A stretch of 64,000 bases of DNA from an uncultured Candidatus Saccharibacteria bacterium (GCA_964648985.1 CAZYMS010000001.1:1215-65214), one strand, 5' to 3'; counted from the stretch's first letter, positions 4,753 to 53,697 are shown. Notes: generated by a model from the letters alone, not told the origin. Translations and numbers: made by a program.

Positions 4753-7700
4753 CTATTCCATATCATCGGATGACGAATCGGACATAGGAGCAGGAGCTGA
4801 GGCAATACTTTCAGCCATCTCCATACCCGAAAAACTATCCATAGTCGGCTGGAACATTTCATCCGCTTCAGGAAGGGCTTTGTCTTTATTAAAGCCAGTA
4901 CCAGCAGGAATGAGCTTACCAATGATTACATTTTCTTTCAGGCCACGGAGGTAATCTGTTTGCGCAGTCACCGCTGCGGAAATAAGTACGCGCGTAGTTT
5001 CCTGGAACGAAGCCGCAGCAAGCCACGAGTCAGTATTCAAAGAGGTCTTGGTAATACCCATGAGAAGCTGCTCGAATTTAGCCGGACGCAGACCTTGTTC
5101 GCGAATTTGCGCATTTATTTCACGAAGCCTAGAGGAGTCAACTGTTTCGCCCACTAAGAGGCTGGTGTCTCCTGAGTCAGTAATGCGAACCTTGGAGAAC
5201 ATTTGGCGAACAATAATCTCGATGTGCTTTTCGTTAATAGATGCACCTTGAGAAGAATATACTTCTTGAGCACCCTTAACTATATAGTCTTGAGCGGCTT
5301 CAGTTCCACGGAGCTGCAATACCTGTTCTGGATTCAAGCTACCTTCCGTAAGCGCCTGACCTTTTACCACCAGGTCGCCGTCTTGCACCTTCAGTCTAAA
5401 CGCGGCAGGGAGTACATATTCTTTGAGCTGATCGCTTTCGTGTACCACGACAATTTTACCAGCTTCTACACGAGCAATACCAGTGTTGGTCGCTTTAACA
5501 GCGCCGCCACTCGCGTCCATATATAGCACCTCGCCATCACTCACCTTTTCACCATCACGTATGCTGGTGTGGACACCGTCCGGCAGTGCAAACGTATCTT
5601 TTGCTACATCGGCAGACTGAATACGAACCAAGTACTCTTTACTGCTCGTTTTTGTTATATACACCTGACCATCTATTTCAGCCATGGTTGCCTGGGCCTT
5701 TGGGTTGCGAGCTTCAAACAATTCTTCTACACGAGGCAAACCTTGGGTAATATCTTCAGCAGAGAAGGCACCACCACTGTGGAAGGTACGCATAGTCAGC
5801 TGGGTAGCAGGTTCACCGATACTTTGCGCAGCTACAATTCCTACTGCACTTCCAAGCTCAACCATACGGTTAAACCCTAAGTCAAAACCGTAGCAAAGGC
5901 GACAAATGCCACGAGTAAGACGGCACTTCAGCACTGAGCGGCACTTTACTTCAAGAATATCTGTGTACTCTTCAGCAATTTTCTTTGCCATGAGCTCGTC
6001 TATTGGTTCGTTGCGCTTAAGCACAACTGCACCACCAGACAACACGTCCTCAGCTACAATCAAGCCGAAGAGACGCTTATCATATGAGCGATTTGTTGGT
6101 ACGGATTCTGTGCGAGCAATAACAGAAAACTCGTCTGTACCACAATCTTCAGCGTTAATAACAATATCCTGCGCAACGTCAACAAGACGGCGAGTAAGAT
6201 ACCCTGCATCAGCAGTTTTAAGCGCAGTATCAGACATACCTTTTCGGCTACCGTGAGTAGAGATAAAGTACTCCAAAACCTGGAGACCCTCTTTAAACCC
6301 ACCACGAACTGGAAGCTCAATAACAGCGCCAGATGGGTTTACCACAAGACCTTTCATACCTGCCATCTGAGTTAGCTGGGAAACAGAACCGCGACCACCA
6401 GACGAGAAAATATAATCTACTGAACTGTGTTCGCGTACAGTTTTAGCAACTTCTTTACCCACTGCTTCAGAAACACCAGCCCAAATTTCAATAACACGGC
6501 CAGAACGCTCTTCATCGGTTAACAATCCTTCTCGGAATTGCTCGTACGCAGCTTCTACTTCTTTATCTGCAGCTTCGAGGAACGCTGACTTGGTTTCAGG
6601 AACACGCAAATCATCCATACCCCAGGATACGCCGGAGCGCTTCATGTAGGTAAAACCAGTACGTTTAATAGCGTCAATAAGCTCGGCAGTACGGTCAGCA
6701 CCAAGCAAACGGTATGCCTCGCGAACTAGTGCCTGAAGTTTTTTCTTGTCAAAAGTTTCATTACGATAACCAAGCTCTGCCGGTACAACTTTGTTGAATA
6801 TAAGACGACCAACAGAAGTTTCAAGCATGGTGCCATCCTCGAGCTGCACCTTTACCGGAGCTTGAATGTGCACGAAGCTATTGTTATAGGCAAGAACTGC
6901 TTCTTGTACAGAACTGAAAATTTTACCTTCACCCTTTGCACCAGGTCTTATCTTAGTAATGTAGTAGCACCCTACAACAACATCTTTATCGGGAGTCATA
7001 ACTGGGTCGCCTGAAGCAGGCTTCAGCAAATTGTGGGCACTTACCATAATTTCGCGAGCCTCACGCTGTGCAGGCTCGGTCAATGGCACATGCACAGCCA
7101 TTTGGTCACCATCAAAGTCAGCGTTAAATGCGGCACACACCATAGGGTGAAGCTGAATTGCTTTACCTTCAATAAGTACAGGTTGGAATGCCTGGAAACC
7201 AAGGCGGTGCAAGGTAGGAGCGCGGTTCAAAAGCACAAAGTGGTCTTTTGTGACCTCTTCCAAAATGTCATACACCTCAGTGCGACCCTGTTCTATGAGA
7301 CGGTTTGCACTACGTACGTTATGTGCATACTCACGAGCAATAAGCTTTGCAATAACAAATGGCTTAAAGAGTTCAAGGGCCATTTTCTTTGGCAAACCAC
7401 ATTGATGAAGTTTGAGTTCTGGACCCACCACAATAACCGAACGGCCAGAATAGTCTACACGCTTACCAAGCAAGTTCTGACGGAAGCGACCCTGTTTACC
7501 TTTGAGCATGTCTGCGAGCGAGCGAAGTTTTCGCTTCTGACCGGTTGAGGCAGTCACCTCTTTACCATGACGCACAGAGTTATCGATAAGAGCATCTACT
7601 GCTTCCTGCAGCATACGCTTTTCATTGCGCGTAATAACTTCTGGAGATTTTATCTCTATGAGTTTTTTAAGACGATTATTTCGGTTAATAACGCGGCGGT

Positions 7701-8803: not shown

Positions 8804-11800
8804 CTAGCGCTCCCGCGCCCCGTTATCACTGAAATCAAGCGGGGGCTCGACTATACCTGCTTGCTGACCTTCGGCCAGTTCACCGTCTATAGAAAGCTGA
8901 TCTTGATGCGTACCCAAGAGTTCCACATCGAGGCCTAAACTTTGTAGTTCTTTTACAAGTACACGGAAGCTTTCCGGTACATTCGGCTTCTTAATAGGCT
9001 CACCTTTTACAATAGATTCGTATGTTTTGCTACGACCCATAACGTCATCGGACTTTATAGTAAGCATTTCTTGAAGCGTATGTGCAGCGCCGTACCCTTC
9101 AAGCGCCCACACTTCCATTTCACCAAAACGCTGACCACCGAACTGTGCCTTACCACCAAGCGGCTGCTGGGTAATAAGCGAGTATGGCCCAATGCTTCTG
9201 GCATGCATCTTGTCATCTACCAAGTGGTGCAGTTTCATCATATATGCCACACCAACAGTGGTACGCTCATCAAATGGCTCTCCAGTTTTACCATCGTAGA
9301 GCTGTATTTTACCATCCTCAGGAAGACCTGCTTTGGCAAGTTCCTGTTTTATTTCTACTTCAGTGACACCATCGAGCACTGGGGTTGCAACCTTATAGCC
9401 AAGTTCACGGGCAGCCATACCGAGGTGGGTTTCCAAAATTTGACCGAGGTTCATACGACTCACCACACCAAGCGGGTTGAGGATTATATCTACCGGGCGA
9501 CCATCGGGCAAGAATGGCATATCTTCTACTGGTACAATCTTTGAAATAACACCTTTGTTTCCGTGACGGCCAGCCATCTTGTCACCAACCTGAATCTTGC
9601 GGATAACAGCGACTGATACCTGTATGGATCGAATAACGCCGGATGGAAGCTTGTCGCCTGCATCACGAGACCATTCGCGAATATTTACTACCTTTCCGTA
9701 TTCACCGTGAGGCAAGTTGAGAGAAGTATCTTTAACATCGCGAGACTTTTCACCAAAAATGACGCGAAGAAGTTTTTCTTCTGGAGTTAGGTCTGTTTCA
9801 CCTTTTGGTGTAATTTTACCAACCAGAATATCGCCAGCCTTAACCTGAGCACCAATGCGAATAACACCGTTCTCGTCTAAATCTTTGAGCTTTTCTTCAC
9901 CAACATTCGGGATATCGCGAGTAACTACTTCAGCACCTAGTTTGGTATCGCGAACATCTATCTTAAAATCTTCAATGTGAATAGAAGAATACCTGTCCTG
10001 CTGCACTAAGCGGCTGGAAAGGATGATGGCATCTTCAAAGTTGTAGCCATCCCAAGACAGGAAGGATACCAATACATTTTGTCCGAGTGCTAATTCTCCT
10101 TCTTCAGTAGAGGCACCATCTGCGAGAATATCACCGACATCAACTCTCTGACCGCGGGAAACACGAGGGATCTGGTTAATACAGGTACCGCTGTTTGTGC
10201 GAAGGAATTTGAGGAGCGGATATTCTTTCTTCTTTCCAGCATCGCTTGTTACTACTACCTTATCGCCCACCACCTGGGTCACCTCACCCGCTTCTTCAGC
10301 AACCACGACCGCACCACTATCACGAGCAGCCTTACGTTCCATTCCCGTACCAATAATGGCAGCCTGCGGCACCAAACAGCTTACCGCTTGACGTTGCATG
10401 TTGGACCCCATAAGCGCGCGGTTAGCATCGTCGTGTTCCAAAAATGGAATAAGTGATGTAGTAACGGAAATAATTTGCTTAGGAGAAAGGTCAACACAGT
10501 CTACATCTTCCGCTTCGCCAATGGTGGGCACGCTGCGCACACGCACCGGCACGCGACCCGGAACAAAATATCCTTCCGCATCTACCTCAACATTTGCTTG
10601 ACCAATGGTGAGCCGTTCTTCTTCGAACGCGTCGAGATATTCAATGGCGTCGGTTAAGCGACCACGGATTTGGATTTGTTCAAGATCCGGCACCTTCTGT
10701 AGTTCTTTTGCAAGCTTTTCAGTAATTTTTTCACCTGCGGCAACAATGGTTGTTTTGTCATGGACAATATCAAAACGAGAAAACTCTCCTATTGCCTCTT
10801 CGCCATTATTGCTCACGGTTTTGTGCACCATTCGATATGGAGTTTCTATAAACCCAAACTCGTTTACACGAGCATAGGTTGCAAGGTGAGATACAAGTCC
10901 AATGTTGGGTCCTTCTGGAGTCGTAATAGGACACAGACGACCATAATGGGAACGATGTACATCACGTACTTCAAAACCTGCGCGCTCACGAGACAAACCA
11001 CCAGGCCCCATAGCAGAGAGGCGACGCTTATGTTCGAGCTCAGCCAAAGGATTGGTCTGGTCCATAAACTGGGAAAGCTGAGAAGAAGAGAAAAACTCTT
11101 GCGTTGCCGCCACTACTGGACGAACATGAATGAGCTGTGCCGGAGTAACAGTTTCAAGGTCAGCCAGCGACATGCGGTCGCGAGCAATACGAGCCATACG
11201 AGCAAGACCTACACGATAGCGCGTCTGAATAAGTTCACCAACTGCGCGAACACGGCGATTAGAGAGATGGTCAATATCGTCAGCCTGGTCTTGGGTATTA
11301 TTTAAACGAATAACTTCGCGGACAGTAGACACCATATCCTCTTTCGTCAGAATAGGACTAGCATTGTCCTGAGGGAAACCCATGCGCTGATTAAACTTAT
11401 AGCGGCCAACTTCGGAAAGATCGTATCGCTCGAAGTTAAAGAACATTGCAGAAATGAGACTACGAGCATTATCTACGGTCGCCAGATCACCAGGTCGAAC
11501 ACGCTTGTACACTTCGCGGAACCCTTCGTCTGCGTTACTGCTTGCATCTTTTTCTAGAGACGCCTGAATGTACTTTGTCTCAGGATCGGTATCTATATCT
11601 TTAAAGGCTTCGAGAATCTCCTCGTTGCTGGACAAACCAAATACACGTAACAGGGCAGTTACTGGAATACGGCGCTTTCGGTCTATTTTTACACCAATAA
11701 CATTTGATGCGTCTGTATCGAGCTCAAGCCATGCACCACGATTAGGAATAACCTTAGCGCCATAGAGGTTCTTACCGCGGAAGTTTTCGCTGCTAAAAAA

Positions 11801-13487: not shown

Positions 13488-14552
13488 ATGCACATTCAAG
13501 AAATTACTGATACAGATAAAGATATATACAATGCCTTTGTTGCAAGCAACAACGGCTCTTTTTTGCAAAGCTATGAATGGGGCGAATGGCAGAAAAAAAA
13601 TGGCAGGAATGCAAGGAGATACACGTGCACAGACGAAACAGGCGCAGTACAACTTGCAGCGCAATTTCTAGTATACCCCCTACCCCTTGGACAGTTTTAT
13701 TTGTATTGCCCATATGGGCCAGTGGCAAATTCCCAATTTCCATCCGCCAGCTGGCGGACCAATTTCCAAACGGCGATACAAGAATTAATAGGGCAAATCA
13801 AAAGAGACCATCCAAAAGCATTATTTACCAAACTGGAACCAATAACGGCTTTCAACCTACAACCTACAACCTACAACCTACAACCTAGTTCCCGAATTCA
13901 ACCCGGTTCCACTTTGCTACTAGACCTCACAAAAACTGAGGAGCAATTGCAAATGGAAATGCACCAGAAGACCAGGTACAACATTAAGGTAGCCAATAAA
14001 CATGGGGTAGTTATTAAAACAGGCACAGATACAACAGGTCCTGAAGCAGAAGAAATACTGATGCTCATTACCAAAACCACAGAAAGACAGGCATATAAAG
14101 GCCATTCGCTTTCCTATTACCAAAACTTTTGCAAATTCTTTGCAGAAGCAGTGCAAAGAAAAAATAATATCAGTGAAATTTCCAACTTAGACACTCCCAG
14201 TATGCAGGTACGATGGTATGGCGCTTTTTACCAGGAACATCTTTTGTCGGGTGGTATATTTATTGATTTCGGCAACACTCGAACATATTTATACGGTGGC
14301 TCAAATGATGCAAAAAAAAACATAATGGCCCCCTACGCTTTGCACTGGCACGCCATACGCGATGCAAAACAAGAAGCAATCACACACTACGATATGGGCG
14401 GCCTTGAAACCAGTTCTGGCACCACCCCTGGCTTTGCCCGCTTTAAACTCGGATTCGGCGGTGGGACAACCCACTACCCAACCCCCACAGATATATCTTG
14501 GCACCCTACCAATTACAAAGTCTACAGGATCGCAAAAAAAATATTGAGATAG
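13488..14552 (+). CDS. FemAB-family peptidoglycan peptidyl-transferase (aminoacyl-tRNA dependent)
   Basis: FLQSYEWGEW N-terminal block and KTRYNIKVANKHGV motif typical of FemABX. Adjacent to a Mur-ligase gene. Confidence 0.65.
   Translation: MHIQEITDTDKDIYNAFVASNNGSFLQSYEWGEWQKKNGRNARRYTCTDETGAVQLAAQFLVYPLPLGQFYLYCPYGPVANSQFPSASWRTNFQTAIQELIGQIKRDHPKALFTKLEPITAFNLQPTTYNLQPSSRIQPGSTLLLDLTKTEEQLQMEMHQKTRYNIKVANKHGVVIKTGTDTTGPEAEEILMLITKTTERQAYKGHSLSYYQNFCKFFAEAVQRKNNISEISNLDTPSMQVRWYGAFYQEHLLSGGIFIDFGNTRTYLYGGSNDAKKNIMAPYALHWHAIRDAKQEAITHYDMGGLETSSGTTPGFARFKLGFGGGTTHYPTPTDISWHPTNYKVYRIAKKILR
13853..13887 (+). repeat. Perfect heptanucleotide tandem repeat (CAACCTA)x5, in frame inside the FemAB-like CDS
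   Basis: Five exact copies read from the sequence. They encode NLQPTTYNLQPS. Confidence 0.9.
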
Positions 14553-18245: not shown

Positions 18246-19595
18246 ATGATACGTGTGATAAAAAATTTTGCTCGAAAACTTATACCTGCTGGAATATTTA
18301 AGGCTGCCCAGCCGTATTACCATGGTTTACTTGCTACATGTGCCCACTATTATTACGGACAACCCAGCAATAAGCTTATTATAATAAGCGTAACTGGTAC
18401 TAAAGGCAAAACCTCTACCGCGCATATTATCTACCAAACCCTTAACAACTTAGGAGCTCCGTGCGGATTAGTCACCACTGCAGTAATTGATGACGGCTCT
18501 GGACAGCGCATGAACGAATATCGCATGACACAAATGTCCGGCCCAGTTACTCACAATCTTCTTGCGCACATGGTAAAGGCAGGAAAAAAGTATGCGGTTG
18601 TGGAAGTATCCAGTGAAGGACTAGCTCAGCACCGACATCTAGGCGTTAATTTTGATATAGCAGTATTTACCAATCTATCGCCCGACCACGTAGATGCCCA
18701 CGGAAGTTTTCAAGCGTATAAAGAAGCCAAAGGAATACTGTTTAAGACACTCGGTAAGTTACAAGTTACAAGTTACAAGTTACAAGTAAATCCGGTTATA
18801 GCAAAGACAATTGTTTCGAATGTAGATAGTGAGCACGGGTTATATTACCTCAATTTTAAGGCGGATAAGCATATCACGTACGGCATAGAAAATTCCTCAG
18901 CGAATCTAGTGGCGAAGGACATCCAAACTTCAACAAATGGCAGTGTATTCAACTTGTCACTTGTCACTTGTCACTTGTCACTACCCGGCAAATTTAATAT
19001 CTATAATGCGCTTGCTTCAGTGGCAGTAGCTGAGTCGCTCGGGTTCAATAAAGAGGTAATAGCAAAAGCGTTAGAGAAGCTACAGCCAATTCCGGGGCGC
19101 ATGGAAGTTTTACAGGTAGAACCCTTTACCGTACTTGTAGATTACGCTCATGAAAAAGCATCTATGACCGCACTCTATGAGACAGTAAAAAGCTGGCCAC
19201 ACAAACGCATTATTCAAGTATTTGGCGCAACAGGTGGCGTGCGGGATAAATCCAGACGAACCGACCTGGGAACCCTTGCGGGTAAGTTTACAGATATAGC
19301 TATAATTACAGATGAAGACCCATTCGACGAGGACCCACAAACTATAATTGATGATATTGCAGACACAGCAGTAGCAGAAGGTAGGGTTATTGGAAAAGAT
19401 TTATTTAGGAACTCAGATCGCCGCGGCGCCATAGCCCAAGCCCTTTCTCTTGCCAAGCCCGGGGACCTAGTACTCATAACAGGTAAAGGAGCGGAACAAA
19501 AAATCGCCCGTGCCAATGGCCAGTACGAAGAATGGGATGATCGGATAGTTACACAAGAACTACTCTCGGAACTGTCGCGAACCCCTAACCCGTGA
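18246..19595 (+). CDS. Mur ligase family protein (MurE/MurT-like) lacking the canonical N-terminal domain
   Basis: P-loop VTGTKGKTSTAHI, DYAHEKASM, C-terminal ITGKGAEQ. Central and C-terminal Mur ligase domains are recognisable. Confidence 0.7.
   Translation: MIRVIKNFARKLIPAGIFKAAQPYYHGLLATCAHYYYGQPSNKLIIISVTGTKGKTSTAHIIYQTLNNLGAPCGLVTTAVIDDGSGQRMNEYRMTQMSGPVTHNLLAHMVKAGKKYAVVEVSSEGLAQHRHLGVNFDIAVFTNLSPDHVDAHGSFQAYKEAKGILFKTLGKLQVTSYKLQVNPVIAKTIVSNVDSEHGLYYLNFKADKHITYGIENSSANLVAKDIQTSTNGSVFNLSLVTCHLSLPGKFNIYNALASVAVAESLGFNKEVIAKALEKLQPIPGRMEVLQVEPFTVLVDYAHEKASMTALYETVKSWPHKRIIQVFGATGGVRDKSRRTDLGTLAGKFTDIAIITDEDPFDEDPQTIIDDIADTAVAEGRVIGKDLFRNSDRRGAIAQALSLAKPGDLVLITGKGAEQKIARANGQYEEWDDRIVTQELLSELSRTPNP
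18758..18787 (+). repeat. Perfect heptanucleotide repeat (GTTACAA)x4, in frame in the Mur-ligase CDS
   Basis: Four exact copies. They encode LQVTSYKLQV. Confidence 0.9.
18952..18982 (+). repeat. Perfect heptanucleotide repeat (ACTTGTC)x4, in frame in the Mur-ligase CDS; a near reverse-complement of the upstream (GTTACAA)n array
   Basis: Four exact copies. The reverse complement of GTTACAAGT is ACTTGTAAC, versus ACTTGTCAC here. Encodes SLVTCHLS. Confidence 0.9.
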
Positions 19596-19608
19596 GTGGC
19601 ATTCTTTC

Positions 19609-19632
19609 ATAATTCTTAATTCTTAATTCATG
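19609..19632 (+). repeat. Heptamer direct repeat (TAATTCT)x3 spanning the start codon of the TsaB-like ORF
   Basis: Read directly: ataattcttaattcttaattcatg. Confidence 0.7.
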
Positions 19633-19956
19633 ATTCTCCATCTTAATACCACGAAACTTGAACGGATCGAATTCAAGCTACTAGATGGTAAAAAAACCAT
19701 AGCCGAGGATACTGTAGCACTTGAATATCACGAAAACGGTGACATACTTAAACACCTTGAAGCATTTTTGCGAAAACAAAAAGTAAAGAGTTTGGCATCG
19801 GGCTCTAAAAACCTACAACCTACAACCTACAACCTAATTACTGGTATTCGCGTTTCTGCCGGCACCGGTTCTTACACCGGCATCCGTGTAGGGACTTCTA
19901 TTGCGCAGGCACTAAGCCTTGCCTGGAATGTGCCTTTAAAAATTAAGAGCACCTAA
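19630..19956 (+). CDS. TsaB/YeaZ-like protein, N-terminal domain only (108 aa)
   Basis: ITGIRVSAGTGSYTGIRVGTSIAQALSLAWNVPL matches the TsaB GPGSFTGLRIG...A.ALA...P motif region. The ORF ends about 100 aa short of a typical TsaB. Confidence 0.5.
   Translation: MILHLNTTKLERIEFKLLDGKKTIAEDTVALEYHENGDILKHLEAFLRKQKVKSLASGSKNLQPTTYNLITGIRVSAGTGSYTGIRVGTSIAQALSLAWNVPLKIKST
19810..19836 (+). repeat. Heptanucleotide repeat (AACCTAC)x3.9, in frame in the TsaB-like CDS; same unit and phase as the array in the FemAB-like gene
   Basis: Encodes NLQPTTYNL, the same peptide as at 13853-13887. Confidence 0.9.
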
Positions 19957-29571: not shown

Positions 29572-31638
29572 ATGAAATTTGACCTTCAAAGCAAATACAA
29601 ACCTGCTGGTGACCAACCCGGGGCAATTGCCGGTATCCTTAAATCTCTGAAGTCGGGAAACAAACATCAAACCCTTTTAGGTGTCACGGGAAGTGGCAAG
29701 ACTTTCTCCATGGCAAATGTGGTACAAGACCTGCAGCGCCCTACACTGGTCATGTGTCACAACAAAACCCTTGCAGCACAGCTGGCAAGTGAGTTTCAAG
29801 AATTTTTTCCAAATAATGCCGTACATTATTTTGTCTCGTATTACGACTACTATCAGCCAGAAGCGTACATTCCGCGATCTGATACATTTGTAGAAAAAGA
29901 AACCCAGATAAACGAAGAAATAGACAGGCTCCGCAATGCTGCAACACAAAGCCTACTGACCCGAAAAGACGTACTAATAGTTGCGTCTGTTTCATGTATT
30001 TATGGACTTGGCAATCCCGCGAACTACATGGAGCTTTCTATGGAGATTAAACGCGGACAACAGCTCAAGCGAGATAAACTATTACGCAGGCTTACCGATT
30101 TACAATTTCACCGCAATGACTTTGATTTGAAGCGCGGCACCTTTAGGGCACAGGGTGACACCCTGGAAATAGTACTCGCAAGCGAGGACACACTCATTCG
30201 CTTAGAATTTTTTGGTGATGAACTAGAAAAAATTGAACGGCGCGACGTACTCACAGGAGAAACGTTAGAAGTGCTGGATAGCATACACATATTTCCTGCA
30301 AAGCACTTTGTGGCAACTGAAGACGCGATACATACAGCTATAGAAAATATTCGGAACGAACTCCTTGAGCAGCTGGCGGTACTGCGCGGGCAAGGAAAAA
30401 TACTTGAAGCAGCACGTCTTGAGCAACGCACAAACTTTGACTTGGAAATGCTCACCAATACTGGTTTTGTGGCGGGCATAGAGAACTATTCAAGGCATAT
30501 GGATGGTAGGCAAGCTGGCGAGCCGCCTTCTACGTTGATTGATTATTTTCCCGATAACTTTTTACTGTTCATAGACGAGTCACACCAAACTATTCCGCAA
30601 GTTGGCGCCATGTATAATGGCGACCGCGCTCGCAAAACCACACTGGTAGATTACGGTTTTCGATTGCCCAGCGCTATGGACAATCGCCCACTGCAATTCG
30701 CTGAGTTTGAAAAAAAGGTGGATCAAGTTGTATATGTATCTGCCACTCCGGGGCCCTACGAGCTGCGCAAAAGTCTGGAGGAGAACAAGACGATCTCCCG
30801 TCCTGGCTCACAACTCAAGTCTCACGGCTCAAGTCTCGACCTAAAGGGTGTTACAGTGGTAGAGCAGATCATTCGCCCAACAGGACTGGTAGACCCGACC
30901 ATAGAAATAAAACCAATTAAGAACCAAGTAGACGACTTGCTTGAGCAGATTCAGACGCGCGTAAAAAAACATGAGCGCGTATTGGTGACCACCCTCACAA
31001 AGCGCATGGCAGAAGAGTTAACTGAGTATCTCAAAGAGGCAAATGTAAAAGTACAGTATATTCACTCCGAAGTAGATACAATGGAGCGCATAGAAACACT
31101 GCGCGATTTGCGCTTAGGAGTATACGATGTACTAGTTGGTATAAACCTTTTACGTGAGGGATTGGACTTACCGGAAGTTTCCCTGGTGGCAATACTCGAC
31201 GCAGACAAAGAAGGATTTCTTCGAAGTGAAACTGCCTTCATGCAAATAATTGGTCGCGCTGCCCGCCACTTACACGGCCACGTTATTATGTATGCAGACC
31301 GCATGACCGGCTCCATGGATCGCGCCATAAAGGAAACAACCAGACGCCGCGCTCTGCAACAGAAATACAACGAAGATCACGGTATAACACCGAAAGGCAT
31401 ACAAAAAGCCATAGCAGACACACGCATGGCAGGAAGCAAAGTCCCCGAAACACTTCCCGGCAGCAGCATACAAGAAGTAGACCCGGGCAAGCTTAACAAA
31501 GAGGAACTGAAGTACTATTTGGAAGAACTTGAAAACCAAATGGACCTTGCGGCAAAGAATCTTGAGTTCGAACTCGCTGCAACTCTCCGCGATAAAATAA
31601 CTGCAGCAAAAAAGTTATCAAAATTAAAGAAAAAATAA
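29572..31638 (+). CDS. uvrB: Excinuclease ABC subunit B
   Basis: Walker [10 protein letters not shown], beta-hairpin region, [19 protein letters not shown], and a C-terminal UvrC-interaction coiled coil. Full-length collinearity. Confidence 0.95.
30805..30840 (+). repeat. Imperfect 14-nt (2x7) direct repeat x2.5 in frame in uvrB, encoding an approximately 20-aa insertion
   Basis: ggctcacaactcaagt / ctcacggctcaagt / ctcgac. Encodes ...[12 protein letters not shown]..., lying between the conserved YEL and RPTGL blocks, where E. coli and Bacillus UvrB have only about 12 residues. Confidence 0.7.
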
Positions 31639-37375: not shown

Positions 37376-37471
37376 ATTGTTAAGACAGACGTGAGAAGTG
37401 AGGCGTGAGAAATGAGAGCGGTCTCTGTATTTACTCACGTCTCCAGCCTCATATCTCACTACTGTTTTTAA

Positions 37472-38485
37472 TTATTTCTTATTAATAATATTTACAATTA
37501 ATTTTACCATAACCTCTTTTTGGTCTGGCTTGCTTTCAGCGATTAAAAGCGCCAGGGCTGCGAGTGCGTTATCATTTAATTTGCGCTCGCCTCGTTTATT
37601 ATATAACGCGCGGTTTTCTATTAAGTAGAGAAGAAACAACAAGGACCCGATGCGTTTATTCCCATCTACGAATGGGTGGTCCTTTATAGCAAAGTATAAA
37701 AGATGTGCGGCCTTTTCTTCCAAGCTTTCATAGAGAGGCTTGCCACCCCATGTCTGCTCTATGTTACCGAGCAATCCTTGGAATTTACTACCGGACTCAG
37801 CGCCGAAAATATCACTCGCCTCTCCTTTGGCCATGAGCCGTTTCTTGAACTGCACAATGGACTTACTTACCTTTTCGTAATCGAGCTTATAGACTGACCT
37901 CTTAGTAACATTCTCTATCTCTAACTCATCGTGGTCGTACTTGTTCAGCAGTACCCATGTGGCAGTGTAGTCGGTAATTATGTTGAGGAGTTCTTTTTCG
38001 TAGCCATCGAGCCTATGGGTTTCTACGGCCCCTTGTAAAAGTTTTACCGCTCCTTCAAGCTCTTTCAGTTTTGCCTGCGATTGCTCTTTAAGCCGTTCCT
38101 GGTTTACCAAAAAGCCTTTAAGTAGGTAGTCGCGCAAATGTTGGGTAGCCCAAATACGAAACTGAGTGCCGCGCTTAGATTTCACACGATAGCCAACAGA
38201 AATAACCACGTCTAAATTATAGTAAGTGGTTGGCTTATCTAAGCCAATTTGCAAATTATGCGAATTGGCTTTCTTAAGCGAAGTTCTCGCCTCCTCTAAC
38301 TCCCTTTCCTTATAAATATTACTGATATGCCGAGAAACAACACTAATATCTCTTTGAAACAAAACAGACATTTGCCCCTGCGAAAGCCATACTGTTTCAC
38401 CCTCAAAACTGACCTCTACTGCGGGACCTTGATCATCTTTATAAATAGTAATTTCGCTGGTATTTTGTTCCTTTGTTTCTTTCAT
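37472..38485 (-). CDS. RhuM-family / Fic-domain protein
   Basis: N-terminal RhuM-like block (VEVSFEGETVWLSQGQMSVLFQRDISVVSRHISNIY) and Fic motif HPFVDGNKRIG. Confidence 0.75.
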   Translation of the reverse strand: MKETKEQNTSEITIYKDDQGPAVEVSFEGETVWLSQGQMSVLFQRDISVVSRHISNIYKERELEEARTSLKKANSHNLQIGLDKPTTYYNLDVVISVGYRVKSKRGTQFRIWATQHLRDYLLKGFLVNQERLKEQSQAKLKELEGAVKLLQGAVETHRLDGYEKELLNIITDYTATWVLLNKYDHDELEIENVTKRSVYKLDYEKVSKSIVQFKKRLMAKGEASDIFGAESGSKFQGLLGNIEQTWGGKPLYESLEEKAAHLLYFAIKDHPFVDGNKRIGSLLFLLYLIENRALYNKRGERKLNDNALAALALLIAESKPDQKEVMVKLIVNIINKK

Positions 38486-39733: not shown

Positions 39734-42559
39734 TTATTGCTTTTCCATACCACCCCAAGTATCTCCAACTTTTGCTTCACAGACCACTGGCACCGATAGC
39801 TTTATAGCCTCTTCCATGAGGGGTTTTATGAGTTTTATATATTCTTCTACTTTATTTTCTTTTACTTCAAATACTAGTTCATCATGCACCTGAAGGAGCA
39901 TGCGGCAATCAGATGTGGGGTGTGAACCTTGAGACGAGAGTGCTTTGTTGATATTAATCATGGCCACTTTAATAACATCGGCAGCCAATGACTGAATGGG
40001 AAAGTTAATTGCGGCACGTTCAGCAGCCTGACGGATAAAGAATTGACTGGATTTAATTTCAGGAAACTTTCGCATCCGACCAAGTTCGTTTGTTACAAAT
40101 CCATTGTCTCGGACCTCGGTTTTGATTTTCTCTAAATACTCCTTTACTTGCGGATATGTTTGGAAGTATTTATCTATGTACTCTTTTGCATCCCCATGCG
40201 CTATCTCGCTTATACGATAAGAAAGACCAAATGCAGATAATCCGTACAATATACCAAAATTCACTGTTTTGGCATGACGGCGCATATCTTTTGTAACAGC
40301 ATCTGCGGGTACATTAAATATACCCATAGCAGTTGTTGTGTGAATATCTTTTCCAGAGTTAAATACTTCTAACATATTCACATCCTGCGCTAAGTGCGCA
40401 ACTACCCGAAGCTCAATTTGCGAATAATCTAGACTTAACAGCTTATATCCTTTCTGCGCGACAAAAGCTTTACGAATTTCTGCGCCCACACCCTCACCCT
40501 TAATGGGTATGTTCTGTAAATTTGGATCTATGGAGCTCAGCCTGCCAGTCGCAGCTATTGTCTGATTATAGCTCGTATGAATGCGTTTGGTTTTTGCGTT
40601 CACCATCTCTGGTAGAGAAAGCAAATAGGTGTTTTGCAACTTGGTCAACTCTCTGTACTGCATTATTTTTTCTACAATTGGGTGCTGTCCGAGCAATTTT
40701 TCAAGTTCGCCCGCGGCAGTAGAAAGGCCGGTTTTGGTTTTTTTAGCAAACTCAGACTTTAGCCCAAGCTTAGTAAACAAAATCTCTCTGAGCTGTGTTG
40801 GCGAGTTTATATTAAACTCTTCTCCTGCCAATGTATGTATGTCTTTAGTAAGGCTGTAAATGGTTTTTTCTGCTTCGTCGGATAATTTCTTCAAAAATGG
40901 CACATCGAGCAAAATACCCTCTCGTTCCATATGTTCCAGTACTGATACCAAAGGCATTTCAATATCGTTAAAAATAGACTGCAACCCATCAGTTTTAAGC
41001 CTTGGGCTAAATAGTTCATAAAGGCGATACGTAATATCTACATCCTCTGCTGCGTACCAAGACACCTTTTCTACTGGAACCTGGTCCATGGTTATGGCGG
41101 CTTTTCCTTTGCCTATCAGCTCTTCAATGGGCTGCATCTGGTATCCCAATTCATTAAACGCAAGGGCATCTAAACCGTGCTGGCGAATGCCAGCGTTCAG
41201 TAAGTAGGAAGCTATCATGGTATCAAAATATATTCCACCAAGCACTACGCCGGCATTGGTCAACATGTGCTGGTCAAATTTGATGTTGTGGCCAATTTTA
41301 TACATGTCACTTTCCAGTATGCGAATAAAAGCTTTACGCGCAAGTGCAATACCCACAGGAATATAATAAGCCTCCCCAGGAGCGTAACAAATAGACACGC
41401 CCACGAGTTCCGCATCGATAATATTCAGCGAAGTACTCTCTGTATCTAGTGCAAATACTTTTTGCTTTTCTAGCTTTGCAACAAGTCTGTCCAATTTTTC
41501 CTCAGTATCTATAAGCTGATAGTCTTGCTTGCCGATAGATGGTTTTGTTATTCCGGCCTCCGAGCCGGAATCCAGGTTGTCTGATTCAGGATGGGTTCCG
41601 GATAGCCCTCGAGGACTCGTGGCTTCCGGAATGACAGAAGAAGAGGGGGTATACCCCTTCGGCAATTTATCCACTAAGCTCTTAAATTCAAATTTCTTAA
41701 AGACTTCTACTGCTTCACCAAGTTGCTGCCGACCAAAGTTATAGGGCGGGATTTCTATGTCGAGCGGAACATTGGTAACTATCGTGGCAAGCATATACGA
41801 CTGTCTAGCCGATTCTTCCTGTTCTGTTAATAGCTGGAGTGTTCGAGGCTTAATATTTTCCAACCCCTTACCTGCATGTATCGCTTTGTACAGCGCATCT
41901 ATGCTTCCAAATTCTTTTATTAAATCCGTTGCGCCTTTTTCGCCAATTCCTTTTACTCCCTTAATGTTGTCGGAAGGGTCGCCGCGGAGCGCTTTGTAGT
42001 CAATCATCTGCTTTGGCGCAAAACCATATCGCTCCATAACAGCCGCTTCATCGTAAATAGCAGTGTCGGTAATACCTTTGCGGAGTGTATAAATTTTTAC
42101 ACACTTATTCACGAGTTGTATAGCATCCATATCACCCGTAACAACCATTACCTCGCATGCATCTTTATTTTGTTTGCACAACTCAACGGACAAGGTTCCA
42201 AGTAAGTCATCTGCCTCAAACCCAGCCTTTTCAAAAATAGGAATATTAAGCGCGGTCACCACCTGTTTTACAAGAGCGAATTGTGGTATTAGATCATCCG
42301 CAGTCTTAGCCCTTGTACCTTTATAGTCAGCATATTGCTCATGTCGAAATGTTGGACCTGCTAAATCGAACGTGCATATAATATGTGTTGGCTTTAAGTC
42401 CTTAATAGCCCGGAGCAGTATCATGGTAAACCCGTACACCGCACCAATAGGTTCGCCTGTTTTGGTGATGGTTAATCCTGGAACAGCGTGAAAACCCCTA
42501 TGAACTAAGGCATTTCCATCTATCAGCATATATCTATTCTTCACTTCTTTTGTAGGCAT
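39734..42559 (-). CDS. polA: DNA polymerase I
   Basis: 5'-3' exonuclease N-terminus, 3'-5' exo block, polymerase motifs DYSQIELR and QVHDEL. 941 aa. Confidence 0.92.
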   Translation of the reverse strand: MPTKEVKNRYMLIDGNALVHRGFHAVPGLTITKTGEPIGAVYGFTMILLRAIKDLKPTHIICTFDLAGPTFRHEQYADYKGTRAKTADDLIPQFALVKQVVTALNIPIFEKAGFEADDLLGTLSVELCKQNKDACEVMVVTGDMDAIQLVNKCVKIYTLRKGITDTAIYDEAAVMERYGFAPKQMIDYKALRGDPSDNIKGVKGIGEKGATDLIKEFGSIDALYKAIHAGKGLENIKPRTLQLLTEQEESARQSYMLATIVTNVPLDIEIPPYNFGRQQLGEAVEVFKKFEFKSLVDKLPKGYTPSSSVIPEATSPRGLSGTHPESDNLDSGSEAGITKPSIGKQDYQLIDTEEKLDRLVAKLEKQKVFALDTESTSLNIIDAELVGVSICYAPGEAYYIPVGIALARKAFIRILESDMYKIGHNIKFDQHMLTNAGVVLGGIYFDTMIASYLLNAGIRQHGLDALAFNELGYQMQPIEELIGKGKAAITMDQVPVEKVSWYAAEDVDITYRLYELFSPRLKTDGLQSIFNDIEMPLVSVLEHMEREGILLDVPFLKKLSDEAEKTIYSLTKDIHTLAGEEFNINSPTQLREILFTKLGLKSEFAKKTKTGLSTAAGELEKLLGQHPIVEKIMQYRELTKLQNTYLLSLPEMVNAKTKRIHTSYNQTIAATGRLSSIDPNLQNIPIKGEGVGAEIRKAFVAQKGYKLLSLDYSQIELRVVAHLAQDVNMLEVFNSGKDIHTTTAMGIFNVPADAVTKDMRRHAKTVNFGILYGLSAFGLSYRISEIAHGDAKEYIDKYFQTYPQVKEYLEKIKTEVRDNGFVTNELGRMRKFPEIKSSQFFIRQAAERAAINFPIQSLAADVIKVAMININKALSSQGSHPTSDCRMLLQVHDELVFEVKENKVEEYIKLIKPLMEEAIKLSVPVVCEAKVGDTWGGMEKQ
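41547..41635. repeat. Palindrome-rich ~90-bp element in frame inside polA (termini GTTATTCCGG...CCGGAATGAC), related to the intergenic element at 4573-4671
   Basis: Hairpins TTCCGGC-CTCCGA-GCCGGAA and TTCCGGA...TCCGGAA with a central CCTCGAGG. Encodes the Ser/Gly/Pro-rich linker between the 5'-nuclease and 3'-5' exo domains. Confidence 0.5.
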
Positions 42560-53503: not shown

Positions 53504-53697
53504 GTGGATATGTGGACAAACCGGAATAGAATCAAGAATTATGAATTAAGAATTAAGCGAAAACATATTTTTTATCGACAATGAGTTCGAACAACTTGTG
53601 TATAGTCCGTGTGAGTAAATGGGGAAAAGTGCGGACTTTGTCTTTGGGGCATGAGTTATCAACCACCTATTAGGGGTTTGTACTGTGCTTTTCCACA
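53504..53697. promoter_or_regulatory. Cluster of DnaA-box-like 9-mers in the dnaA-dnaN intergenic region
   Basis: tgtggacaa and gtggatat (overlapping, 53504-53519), ttatcgaca (53572-53580), ttttccaca (53689-53697). Each is one mismatch or fewer from TTATCCACA. Confidence 0.45.
53529..53560. repeat. Degenerate heptamer array (GAATAGA/ATCAAGA/ATTATGA/ATTAAGA/ATTAAGC) upstream of dnaN
   Basis: Read directly. The reverse complement matches the TTAATTCTTAATTCAT motif at 19609. Confidence 0.55.

Follow-up and report, generated by a model that had tools for sequence, protein, structure and literature searches.

The gene analyzed here is a uvrB gene in a stretch of 64,000 nucleotides (hereafter the window) from an uncultured Candidatus Saccharibacteria bacterium (GCA_964648985.1 CAZYMS010000001.1:1215-65214), and the feature under study is an in-frame insertion in its product that contains a short array of 7-nucleotide repeats. 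The uvrB open reading frame (ORF) was identified by its scores against the NCBIfam equivalog NF003673 (1025.6 bits; cutoff 743) and TIGR00631 (1000.7 bits; cutoff 750.1), by the presence of the Pfam domains ResIII, UvrB_inter, Helicase_C, UvrB and UVR, and by matches to solved UvrB structures with E values of 1e-250 or better. The encoded protein, which is identical to the database protein P0272 (P numbers denote database proteins, and L numbers related loci), is colinear with the structures 2fdc, 1d9z and 3uwx with the sole exception of residues 402-428. The alignment to the Geobacillus/Bacillus caldotenax UvrB splits at this point, from query 2-401/chain 4-404 to query 429-677/chain 407-652, and leaves the 27 residues L402-T428 opposite P405-G406 of the Geobacillus protein, a net gain of 25 residues. 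The insertion is located after motif III (VSATPG) and before RPTGL, and the spacing from YEL to RPTGL is 36 residues compared with 11-12 in Bacillus and Escherichia coli. The original prediction, made from the nucleotide sequence, had described an in-frame insertion between the YVSATPG.YEL and RPTGL blocks, and the structure alignment bore this out, although the sizes had been set too low (about 20 extra residues instead of 25, and about 33 residues between the blocks instead of 36). It had also put the insertion, as the probable location, in a surface loop of domain 3; the alignment locates it instead between domains 1a and 3. Using the domain names of established UvrB structures (e.g. PMC3458569), the insertion is the connection from motif III, at the end of the RecA-like domain 1a, to the first strand of domain 3. 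The 1a/3 interface of UvrB binds ATP and is crossed by single-stranded DNA (ssDNA) (PMC3458569).

In an AlphaFold2 model of the protein, built with 76 homologues as input and with a mean predicted local distance difference test score (pLDDT) of 76, residues 395-402 form a helix and residues 403-424 a coil, with a pLDDT of about 50 at positions 411-420. The N-terminal edge of the insertion (K400-N405) prolongs this helix in the model, and K400, S401, L402 and N405 are each at least 90% conserved in the 76 homologues. The C-terminal edge (D423-V430) fits the motif (D/E)L(K/R)xITV that a sister clade carries ahead of VEQ.

The sequence at 30805-30840 is ggctcacaactcaagtctcacggctcaagtctcgac, as the original prediction gave it, and it belongs to a degenerate heptanucleotide array of 35 nt that lies in frame within uvrB. 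The array consists of the units CTCACAA, CTCAAGT, CTCACGG, CTCAAGT and CTCGACC, all five of which start with CTC when compared by eye. The predicted 14-nt repeat was confirmed as a tandem pair identical at 12 of 14 positions, i.e. a two-unit higher-order repeat comparable to the perfect 14-mer (2.3 copies) in the linker of the relative L009. It does not account for the whole extra segment, as had been proposed, because the array codes for S413-D423, which are about 11 of the 25 extra residues and less than half of the insertion. Tandem Repeats Finder (TRF) detected the array weakly, at 30814-30837 (period 7, 3.4 copies, 76% matches, score 34). When uvrB was subjected to 2000 codon shuffles and the best lag-7 or lag-14 self-match window anywhere in the gene was recorded, the observed lag-7 maximum (17/24) was reached by 0.15% of the shuffles and the lag-14 maximum (12/14) by 0.35%, and both whole-gene maxima fall at 30805-30807. 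The uvrB repeat is therefore real yet degenerate: there are at least three head-to-tail 7-nt copies beyond chance, and near-perfect unit identity is absent (76% versus 100% in the arrays at 13853, 18756, 18952 and 19810), the tract being interrupted and its longest perfect lag-7 stretch short. Its length of 35 nt fits the 26-35 nt mode of the perfect arrays of this lineage that is described below. The features of the window are collected in Table 1.

Table 1. Features of the window that bear on the uvrB insertion and on related repeats. Coordinates are those of the window.
Feature	Position	Strand	Basis or remark
uvrB, excinuclease ABC subunit B, 688 aa	29572..31638	+	ORF, profile and structure matches
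Linker insertion, aa L402-T428	30775..30855	+	Structure-alignment breakpoints, segment lengths
N-terminal edge of clade-wide insertion, K400 S L E E N405	30769..30786	+	Homologue conservation, model
C-terminal edge of clade-wide insertion, D423 L K G V T V V430	30838..30861	+	Homologue comparison
Degenerate heptanucleotide array, 5 units	30807..30841	+	TRF, repeat search, codon-shuffle test, comparison in register
14-nt (2x7) tandem pair, 12/14 identical	30807-30820 / 30821-30834	+	Repeat search
Putative 'array 1' remnant, GAGAACAAGACGAT (L164: GAGACAAGAGACAA)	30781..30794	+	By-eye comparison only
Perfect (CAACCTA)x5, FemAB-like gene (ORF 13488..14552)	13853-13887	+	In frame, encodes NLQPTTYNLQP
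Perfect (AAGTTAC)x4.6, murE (Mur-ligase, murE-like; ORF 18246..19595)	18756-18787	+	In frame
Perfect (ACTTGTC)x4.4, murE (Mur-ligase, murE-like; ORF 18246..19595)	18952-18982	+	In frame
Perfect (AACCTAC)x3.9, tsaB-like gene (ORF 19630..19956)	19810-19836	+	In frame
In-frame palindromic element encoding SSSVIPEATSPRGLSGTHPESDNLDSGSEAGIT, polA (ORF 39734..42559)	41543-41650	-	Arm match to L006

The spread of the insertion was followed by the length of the segment spanning VSATP to RPTGL, which is 51 residues in the window. The 120 best homologues are 72-94% identical to the window protein, the named ones being Candidatus Doudnabacteria, and all 120 have a segment of 46-92 residues; the genome of the window is treated here as a member of that group. 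In GTDB genomes of Bacillota, Chloroflexota and other lineages of the candidate phyla radiation (CPR) the segment has 26-27 residues. Basal or distant Doudnabacteria have 28 (L018, L019), 34 (L014, L016 and L017) or 38-41 residues (L013, L011), and the nearer Doudnabacteria clade has at least 46. All of the 120 nearest homologues carry it, and the insertion is a clade character and not a recent event in this genome. This does not agree with a recent repeat expansion, and nor does the form of the insertion found in a large sister clade, which has a stable, non-repetitive, Lys-rich linker of 46-54 residues; within 90% clusters this linker keeps a constant length and varies by substitution only. 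An insertion widespread in the phylum and non-repetitive had been named in advance as the finding that would speak against a repeat origin; what was found is an insertion widespread within the clade that is not phylum-wide, the basal members having 28-41 residues.

Of 95 diverse UvrB representatives, 74 have a segment of 26-27 residues, and a dozen unrelated lineages among the 95 have acquired independent insertions there, 37-148 residues in size. This search of 50%-identity representatives could not resolve the clade, since UvrB is too conserved, and it is the sporadic independent insertions that are visible there. The occurrence of independent insertions in unrelated lineages indicates that the UvrB hinge is a general and permissive hotspot for insertions and deletions. 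An insertion at the same hinge was also noticed in a Peribacteria locus (L074, 8931-9083) and in P0125, P0134, P0150, P0174 and other proteins.

Arrays of 7-nt units are present at the same site in relatives. TRF analysis of the linkers of 20 Doudnabacteria loci (2,949 nt) yielded nine period-7/14 arrays (window, L001, L002 with two, L005, L008, L009 with two, and L015) versus about 0.5 expected, the expectation being computed from the high array density of this lineage itself. Arrays at the orthologous site were observed in L081, L164, L082, L002, L165, L166, L009, L005, L001, L015 and L087. They include a perfect (CTCACGG)x4.9 in L081, which encodes LTAHGSRLTAH, a perfect (GAGACAA)x4.3 in L164, (AGAGAAA)x4.3 and (CTCTACC)x3.3 in L002, and (AAACCTC)x3 and GGGTAGA x2 in L082. 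The linkers of L087 and L088 contain GCTAACA arrays; these two loci, and L085, come from a related-locus search of metagenome contigs that returned relatives of at most 70% identity only, and the exact linker-flank pattern of the window gave 0 hits in metagenome contigs. The 7-based periodicity that the original prediction had likened to that of other intragenic arrays of the window is thus supported, and it is strengthened by the perfect arrays of relatives. The comparison of L081 with L164, whose proteins are 94% identical, captures one change: L081 is longer by 24 nt, the gain is the CTCACGG array, and the difference between the two loci is the birth of an array between 94%-identical proteins. 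The GAGACAA array, perfect in L164, is decayed in L081. Many insertions of relatives are non-repetitive. When the peptides of 111 distinct inserts were tested for period 7, ten showed runs of at least three matches, the highest count among periods of 3 or more, which is moderate support. A nucleotide indel census of the window versus L001 and L082 was uninformative at about 80% nucleotide identity.

The loop peptides are hypervariable among proteins that are otherwise nearly identical. The window protein (P0272) is 96.5-96.9% identical to P0001 and P0271 outside the loop, although no relation is seen between the cores of their loops. Among P0005, P0277 and P0279 the identity outside the loop is 98-99%, and each has a loop peptide of its own. 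At the DNA level the flanks of these last three are 84-91% identical and the loop aligns in register, revealing two arrays: array 1 has the units GGGAAAA, GGGCTAA and GAGAAAA in the three genomes, and array 2 the units CTCTAGT-CTCTAAT, CTTAGCA and CTCTACC. Hence, the units of the uvrB arrays differ between species as whole arrays. Since successive copies of a 7-nt unit bring each of its bases into all three codon phases, a homogenised substitution alters up to three of every seven residues, and unrelated-looking peptides result. Judging from the aligned units, the CTC-initial array of the window is the probable orthologue of the CTC-type array 2 of L081, L082, L002 and L165, and the stretch at 30781-30794 may be a remnant of the array 1 of relatives. 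The same kind of change is seen in murE, where equal-length orthologous arrays at a first site consist of AAGTTAC in the window, AAATTAC in L003 and AAGAGAC in L009 and L164, and a second site has unrelated units in L003 (AGCTTCT) and L010 (AATTCAT). More distant relatives lack an array in murE and are 8-11 residues shorter there. The murE arrays are a case of concerted evolution within an essential gene.

The arrays belong to a lineage-wide phenomenon. Counting non-redundant TRF rows in about 20 kb sampled per genome, with open frames as proxies for gene calls, the window and the Doudnabacteria loci contain 10-12 period-7 arrays per 100 kb, and 61 loci of other bacteria contain 1.3, an enrichment of about 8-fold for this lineage. 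Period-14 arrays amount to 5-6 per 100 kb versus 1.3 elsewhere, and in other CPR loci the array density is raised only slightly. The Doudnabacteria with short linkers of 28-34 residues (L014, L016-L019) have no period-7/14 array in 65.5 kb, with about 14 expected from the density of the long-linker lineages, which have 49 in 233.7 kb. Since arrays are absent from the short-linker lineages and present in the long-linker ones, linker growth and the array process co-occur phylogenetically, and the process appears to begin inside the phylum.

The lengths of the perfect arrays are discrete. In the window, L001-L013, L081, L082, L164 and L087, perfect lag-7 runs show a bimodal distribution, with a tail at 14-21 nt, none at 22-25 nt, twelve at 26-35 nt and none above 35 nt; for periods 5, 6 and 8-11 there is no comparable second length mode in those Doudnabacteria loci. 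All 12 perfect arrays of at least 26 nt in the sampled loci are in frame within long open frames, a proportion that is not significant given a coding density of about 88%, and intergenic TRF rows may represent AT-rich low complexity. Sharing of a unit within a genome was found in 5 pairs versus 1.75 expected, which is weakly significant (P = 0.027).

Several further observations concern arrays elsewhere in these genomes. The cyclic unit AACCTAC is found in three genes, the FemAB-like and tsaB-like genes of the window and a different gene of L002 (14305-14334, minus strand), and the peptide is LQPTTYNLQP each time. At the FemAB-like site L003 has a decayed array (CCTACAG CCTACGG), and more distant relatives differ there; tsaB orthologues are 13-15 residues shorter at the point of the array. 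L164 carries the same unit, perfect and in 4.3 copies, in murE (AAGAGAC, 4933-4962) and uvrB (GAGACAA, 11224-11253). In the window, an imperfect (TTCTTAA)x4.6 at 19606-19637 overlaps both the murE-like stop and the tsaB-like start, and its cyclic unit AAGAATT recurs at 53528-53557. A search for a 17-mer of the uvrB array with up to three mismatches recovered its own two tandem copies and CTCACnn-type units at 37393-37450 only; the latter are another heptamer structure and not a copy of an element. They are part of a (GTGAGnn)n tract followed by an inverted (CTCACnn)n tract at 37385-37460, just downstream of the minus-strand gene 37472..38485; the two tracts make up a terminator-like hairpin whose units are of the CTCACnn type also seen in the uvrB array.

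A different type of repetitive DNA occupies the uvrB linker in other relatives. In-frame palindromic elements are present there in L004 (2692-2790), L006 (8310-8395) and L010 (11243-11306), with DNA fold z scores of -4.1, -4.1 and -3.2, respectively. The linker of L085 contains an insert that by eye resembles a repetitive extragenic palindrome (REP) or a miniature inverted-repeat transposable element (MITE), and translated palindrome motifs (VIPAKAGIH, PGMT, LPQDD and PPLKGG) were noticed in P0002, P0011, P0013, P0024, P0036, P0037, P0074 and P0075. In the window itself the palindromic element is in polA; one of its arms matches about 27 nt of the uvrB element of L006, it is present also in the polA of L082, and the closest relative, L001, does not align over this stretch.

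We consider it probable that the extra 25 residues are a tolerated, structurally unconstrained, disordered and lineage-specific spacer, located in the hinge of the two RecA-like motor domains, whose core is rewritten by a heptamer-array process. This interpretation takes as its observed base the position of the insertion, its distribution in the clade, the arrays of relatives, their enrichment and the in-register changes of units, and to these it adds a 21-nt accordion and neutrality, which we infer. A basic spacer would have arisen in an ancestor within the Doudnabacteria, and in the subclade of the window its centre would have been repeatedly rewritten by a genome-wide process that makes short 7-nt arrays, typically of 4-5 units (26-35 nt). 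As three units span all three phases, such arrays would give a peptide period of 7 residues; as the unit length is not divisible by 3, the frame survives a gain or loss only if three units (21 nt, 7 codons) are involved. An array that repeatedly shrinks and regrows in frame would become homogeneous, with the unit sequence drifting in concert between species. A 21-nt survival rule of this kind would account for the mode of 4-5 units (three units added to a seed of one or two) and for perfect homogeneity after re-expansion and, together with re-expansion, for the drift of units between species and for array-less relatives that are about 7-8 residues shorter. In the window copy homogenisation would have ceased, and point mutations would have left an alternation of two unit variants, which shows as a period of 14 nt. 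A sequence-specific function of the loop is unlikely, and the loop would persist because almost any hydrophilic peptide is tolerated at this site.

Several points weigh against this interpretation. Conservation at both edges (KSLxEN and DLKGITV), together with the Lys-rich, length-stable linker of the sister clade, points to possible selection on part of the insertion. The single clean gain that was observed is one of 24 nt and not of 21. The window array is weak by the TRF measures given above, so that its origin as an array leans largely on relatives, and the nearest of these, L001, has another unit (AAATTGG). The orthology of the arrays was judged on a short repetitive alignment, and convergence could explain the likeness instead.

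A further reading, which we hold to be rather unlikely, is that the subclade has an active process, possibly templated or of a copy-and-paste type, that writes arrays of about 28-35 nt (four to five units) into genes, essential ones included, with the uvrB hinge as a hotspot; the arrays would then stay homogeneous across species through 21-nt accordion steps or some other conversion mechanism. Two features hint at something beyond plain slippage, namely the discrete lengths of the arrays (none of 22-25 nt and none above 35 nt) and the recurrence of units across genes (three genes share AACCTAC, and in one genome AAGAGAC is common to murE and uvrB).

The spacer interpretation was also weighed against an adaptive extension of the interdomain linker, for which the repeats were raw material, in the form of a basic flexible arm that contacts DNA, UvrA or UvrC, or that tunes the movement of domains 1a and 3. 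The clade-wide conservation of the insertion edges (K400, S401, L402 and N405 at 90% or more, and DL(K/R)xITV), the hydrophilic and basic character of the loops, the location next to the 1a/3 cleft for ATP and ssDNA (PMC3458569) and the Lys-rich linker of the sister clade, of constant length and varying by substitution only, would all suit such an arm. However, the core changes wholly in sequence and in length (46-92 aa) among proteins 96-99% identical elsewhere, it can be replaced by translated palindromic elements, its centre is of low confidence and without secondary structure in the model, and most bacteria, including other CPR, have no such arm; this explanation is therefore unlikely. It is more doubtful still that the insertion is an old, ordinary lineage-specific indel in which a 7-nt resemblance arose by chance, with no repeat process at this site. 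The low TRF score (34, with 76% matches) in a window with many low-scoring TRF rows fits this idea, as do the presence of the insertion throughout the clade and its non-repetitive form in many relatives; nevertheless, the gene-wide lag-7 and lag-14 maxima fall exactly in the insertion, at levels reached by 0.15-0.35% of codon shuffles, the five units start with CTC as those of the perfect arrays at the aligned position of L081, L082 and L002 do, and the 35 nt falls within the perfect-array mode of 26-35 nt.

Heptanucleotide tracts drive phase variation in some pathogens, and a contingency uvrB, in which 7-nt slippage toggles nucleotide excision repair and thereby gives rise to transient mutator subpopulations, was likewise considered. 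Slippage by a single unit would shift the frame, as 7 is not a multiple of 3, and the uvrB genes of L081 and L164 have perfect arrays of nearly five units. Against this, the interrupted tract of the window (76% matches) suppresses slippage, every uvrB examined is in frame, the members of the clusters show no frameshifted alleles, and the same arrays exist in essential genes such as murE, where the off state would be lethal; phase variation is accordingly very improbable. The idea that the window insert is itself an in-frame miniature palindromic element, of the MITE, REP or Rickettsia palindromic element (RPE) kind, draws on the strong hairpin elements that L004, L006 and L010 carry at this very site and on the one held in frame by the polA of the window. 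We regard it as refuted and hence as extremely improbable, because the insert has no hairpin potential: the fold z score of 30775-30850 is +1.24, and its folding is matched or bettered by 186 of 200 shuffles. The sole inverted repeat near the insert has 9-nt arms that are 89% complementary and straddle it.

Over-represented heptanucleotide repeats have been described as short tandemly repeated repetitive (STRR) sequences in cyanobacteria (Calothrix), as GGGNATC in Xanthomonas and Nostoc, and as TAACTGA in Beggiatoaceae; GGGNATC prefers 4 units and TAACTGA occurs in 2-6 copies, and these heptamers have one dominant unit and are mostly intergenic, or located at protein termini when within ORFs (PMC4692102, PMC4679880). 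The arrays reported here share with them the 7-nt unit, the restriction to a lineage, the scattering over the genome and the few units per array. They differ in their large and varied set of units, which evolve in concert from species to species, and in that 12 of 12 perfect arrays are in frame in housekeeping genes (uvrB, murE, femAB-like and tsaB-like). Tandem repeats of Borgs create intrinsically disordered protein regions, and their intragenic units are always divisible by three (PMC9879509). Both systems consist of intragenic perfect nucleotide repeats that evolve fast, are genome-specific, keep the frame and add peptide segments, which are disordered in the Borg proteins and may be so here; unlike the Borg repeats, those described here have a 7-nt unit, so that the frame is kept only per three units and the peptide period derives from all three phases, and they reside in core cytoplasmic enzymes of a CPR bacterium rather than in extracellular or membrane proteins of an extrachromosomal element.

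In Rickettsia, palindromic elements and intragenic MITEs insert in frame into housekeeping genes (reviewed in PMC10969869), and here too repetitive DNA lies in frame at permissive sites of unrelated housekeeping genes. The direct parallels are the uvrB inserts of L004, L006 and L010 and the polA of the window, and not the window uvrB array, which is much shorter than the RPEs (about 150 bp), is a direct tandem array and lacks hairpin potential. With phase-variable contingency loci the array has in common a tandem tract in a coding region whose unit length cannot be divided by 3, but the tract of the window is interrupted, out-of-frame alleles were not seen, and essential genes bear the same arrays. 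Lineage-specific conserved indels in housekeeping proteins are insertions at a fixed position that mark a clade. The UvrB insertion resembles them in its fixed position and in marking a clade, whereas it conserves position and edges only, its length and sequence being hypervariable within the clade. Neither heptamer arrays in CPR bacteria nor the UvrB insertion described here turned up in literature searches.

These results indicate that the motor-domain hinge of a universal repair helicase accepts 12-66 extra residues of almost any sequence, a tolerance that is useful for UvrB engineering and for the alignment and phylogeny of CPR proteins. They also expose a lineage-specific mutational regime in which in-frame, concertedly evolving 7-base arrays give rise to hypervariable loops in highly conserved proteins. 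A clade with abundant, unit-diverse and length-discrete arrays, of which its basal relatives have none, provides a tractable comparative system for the unexplained over-representation of heptamers.

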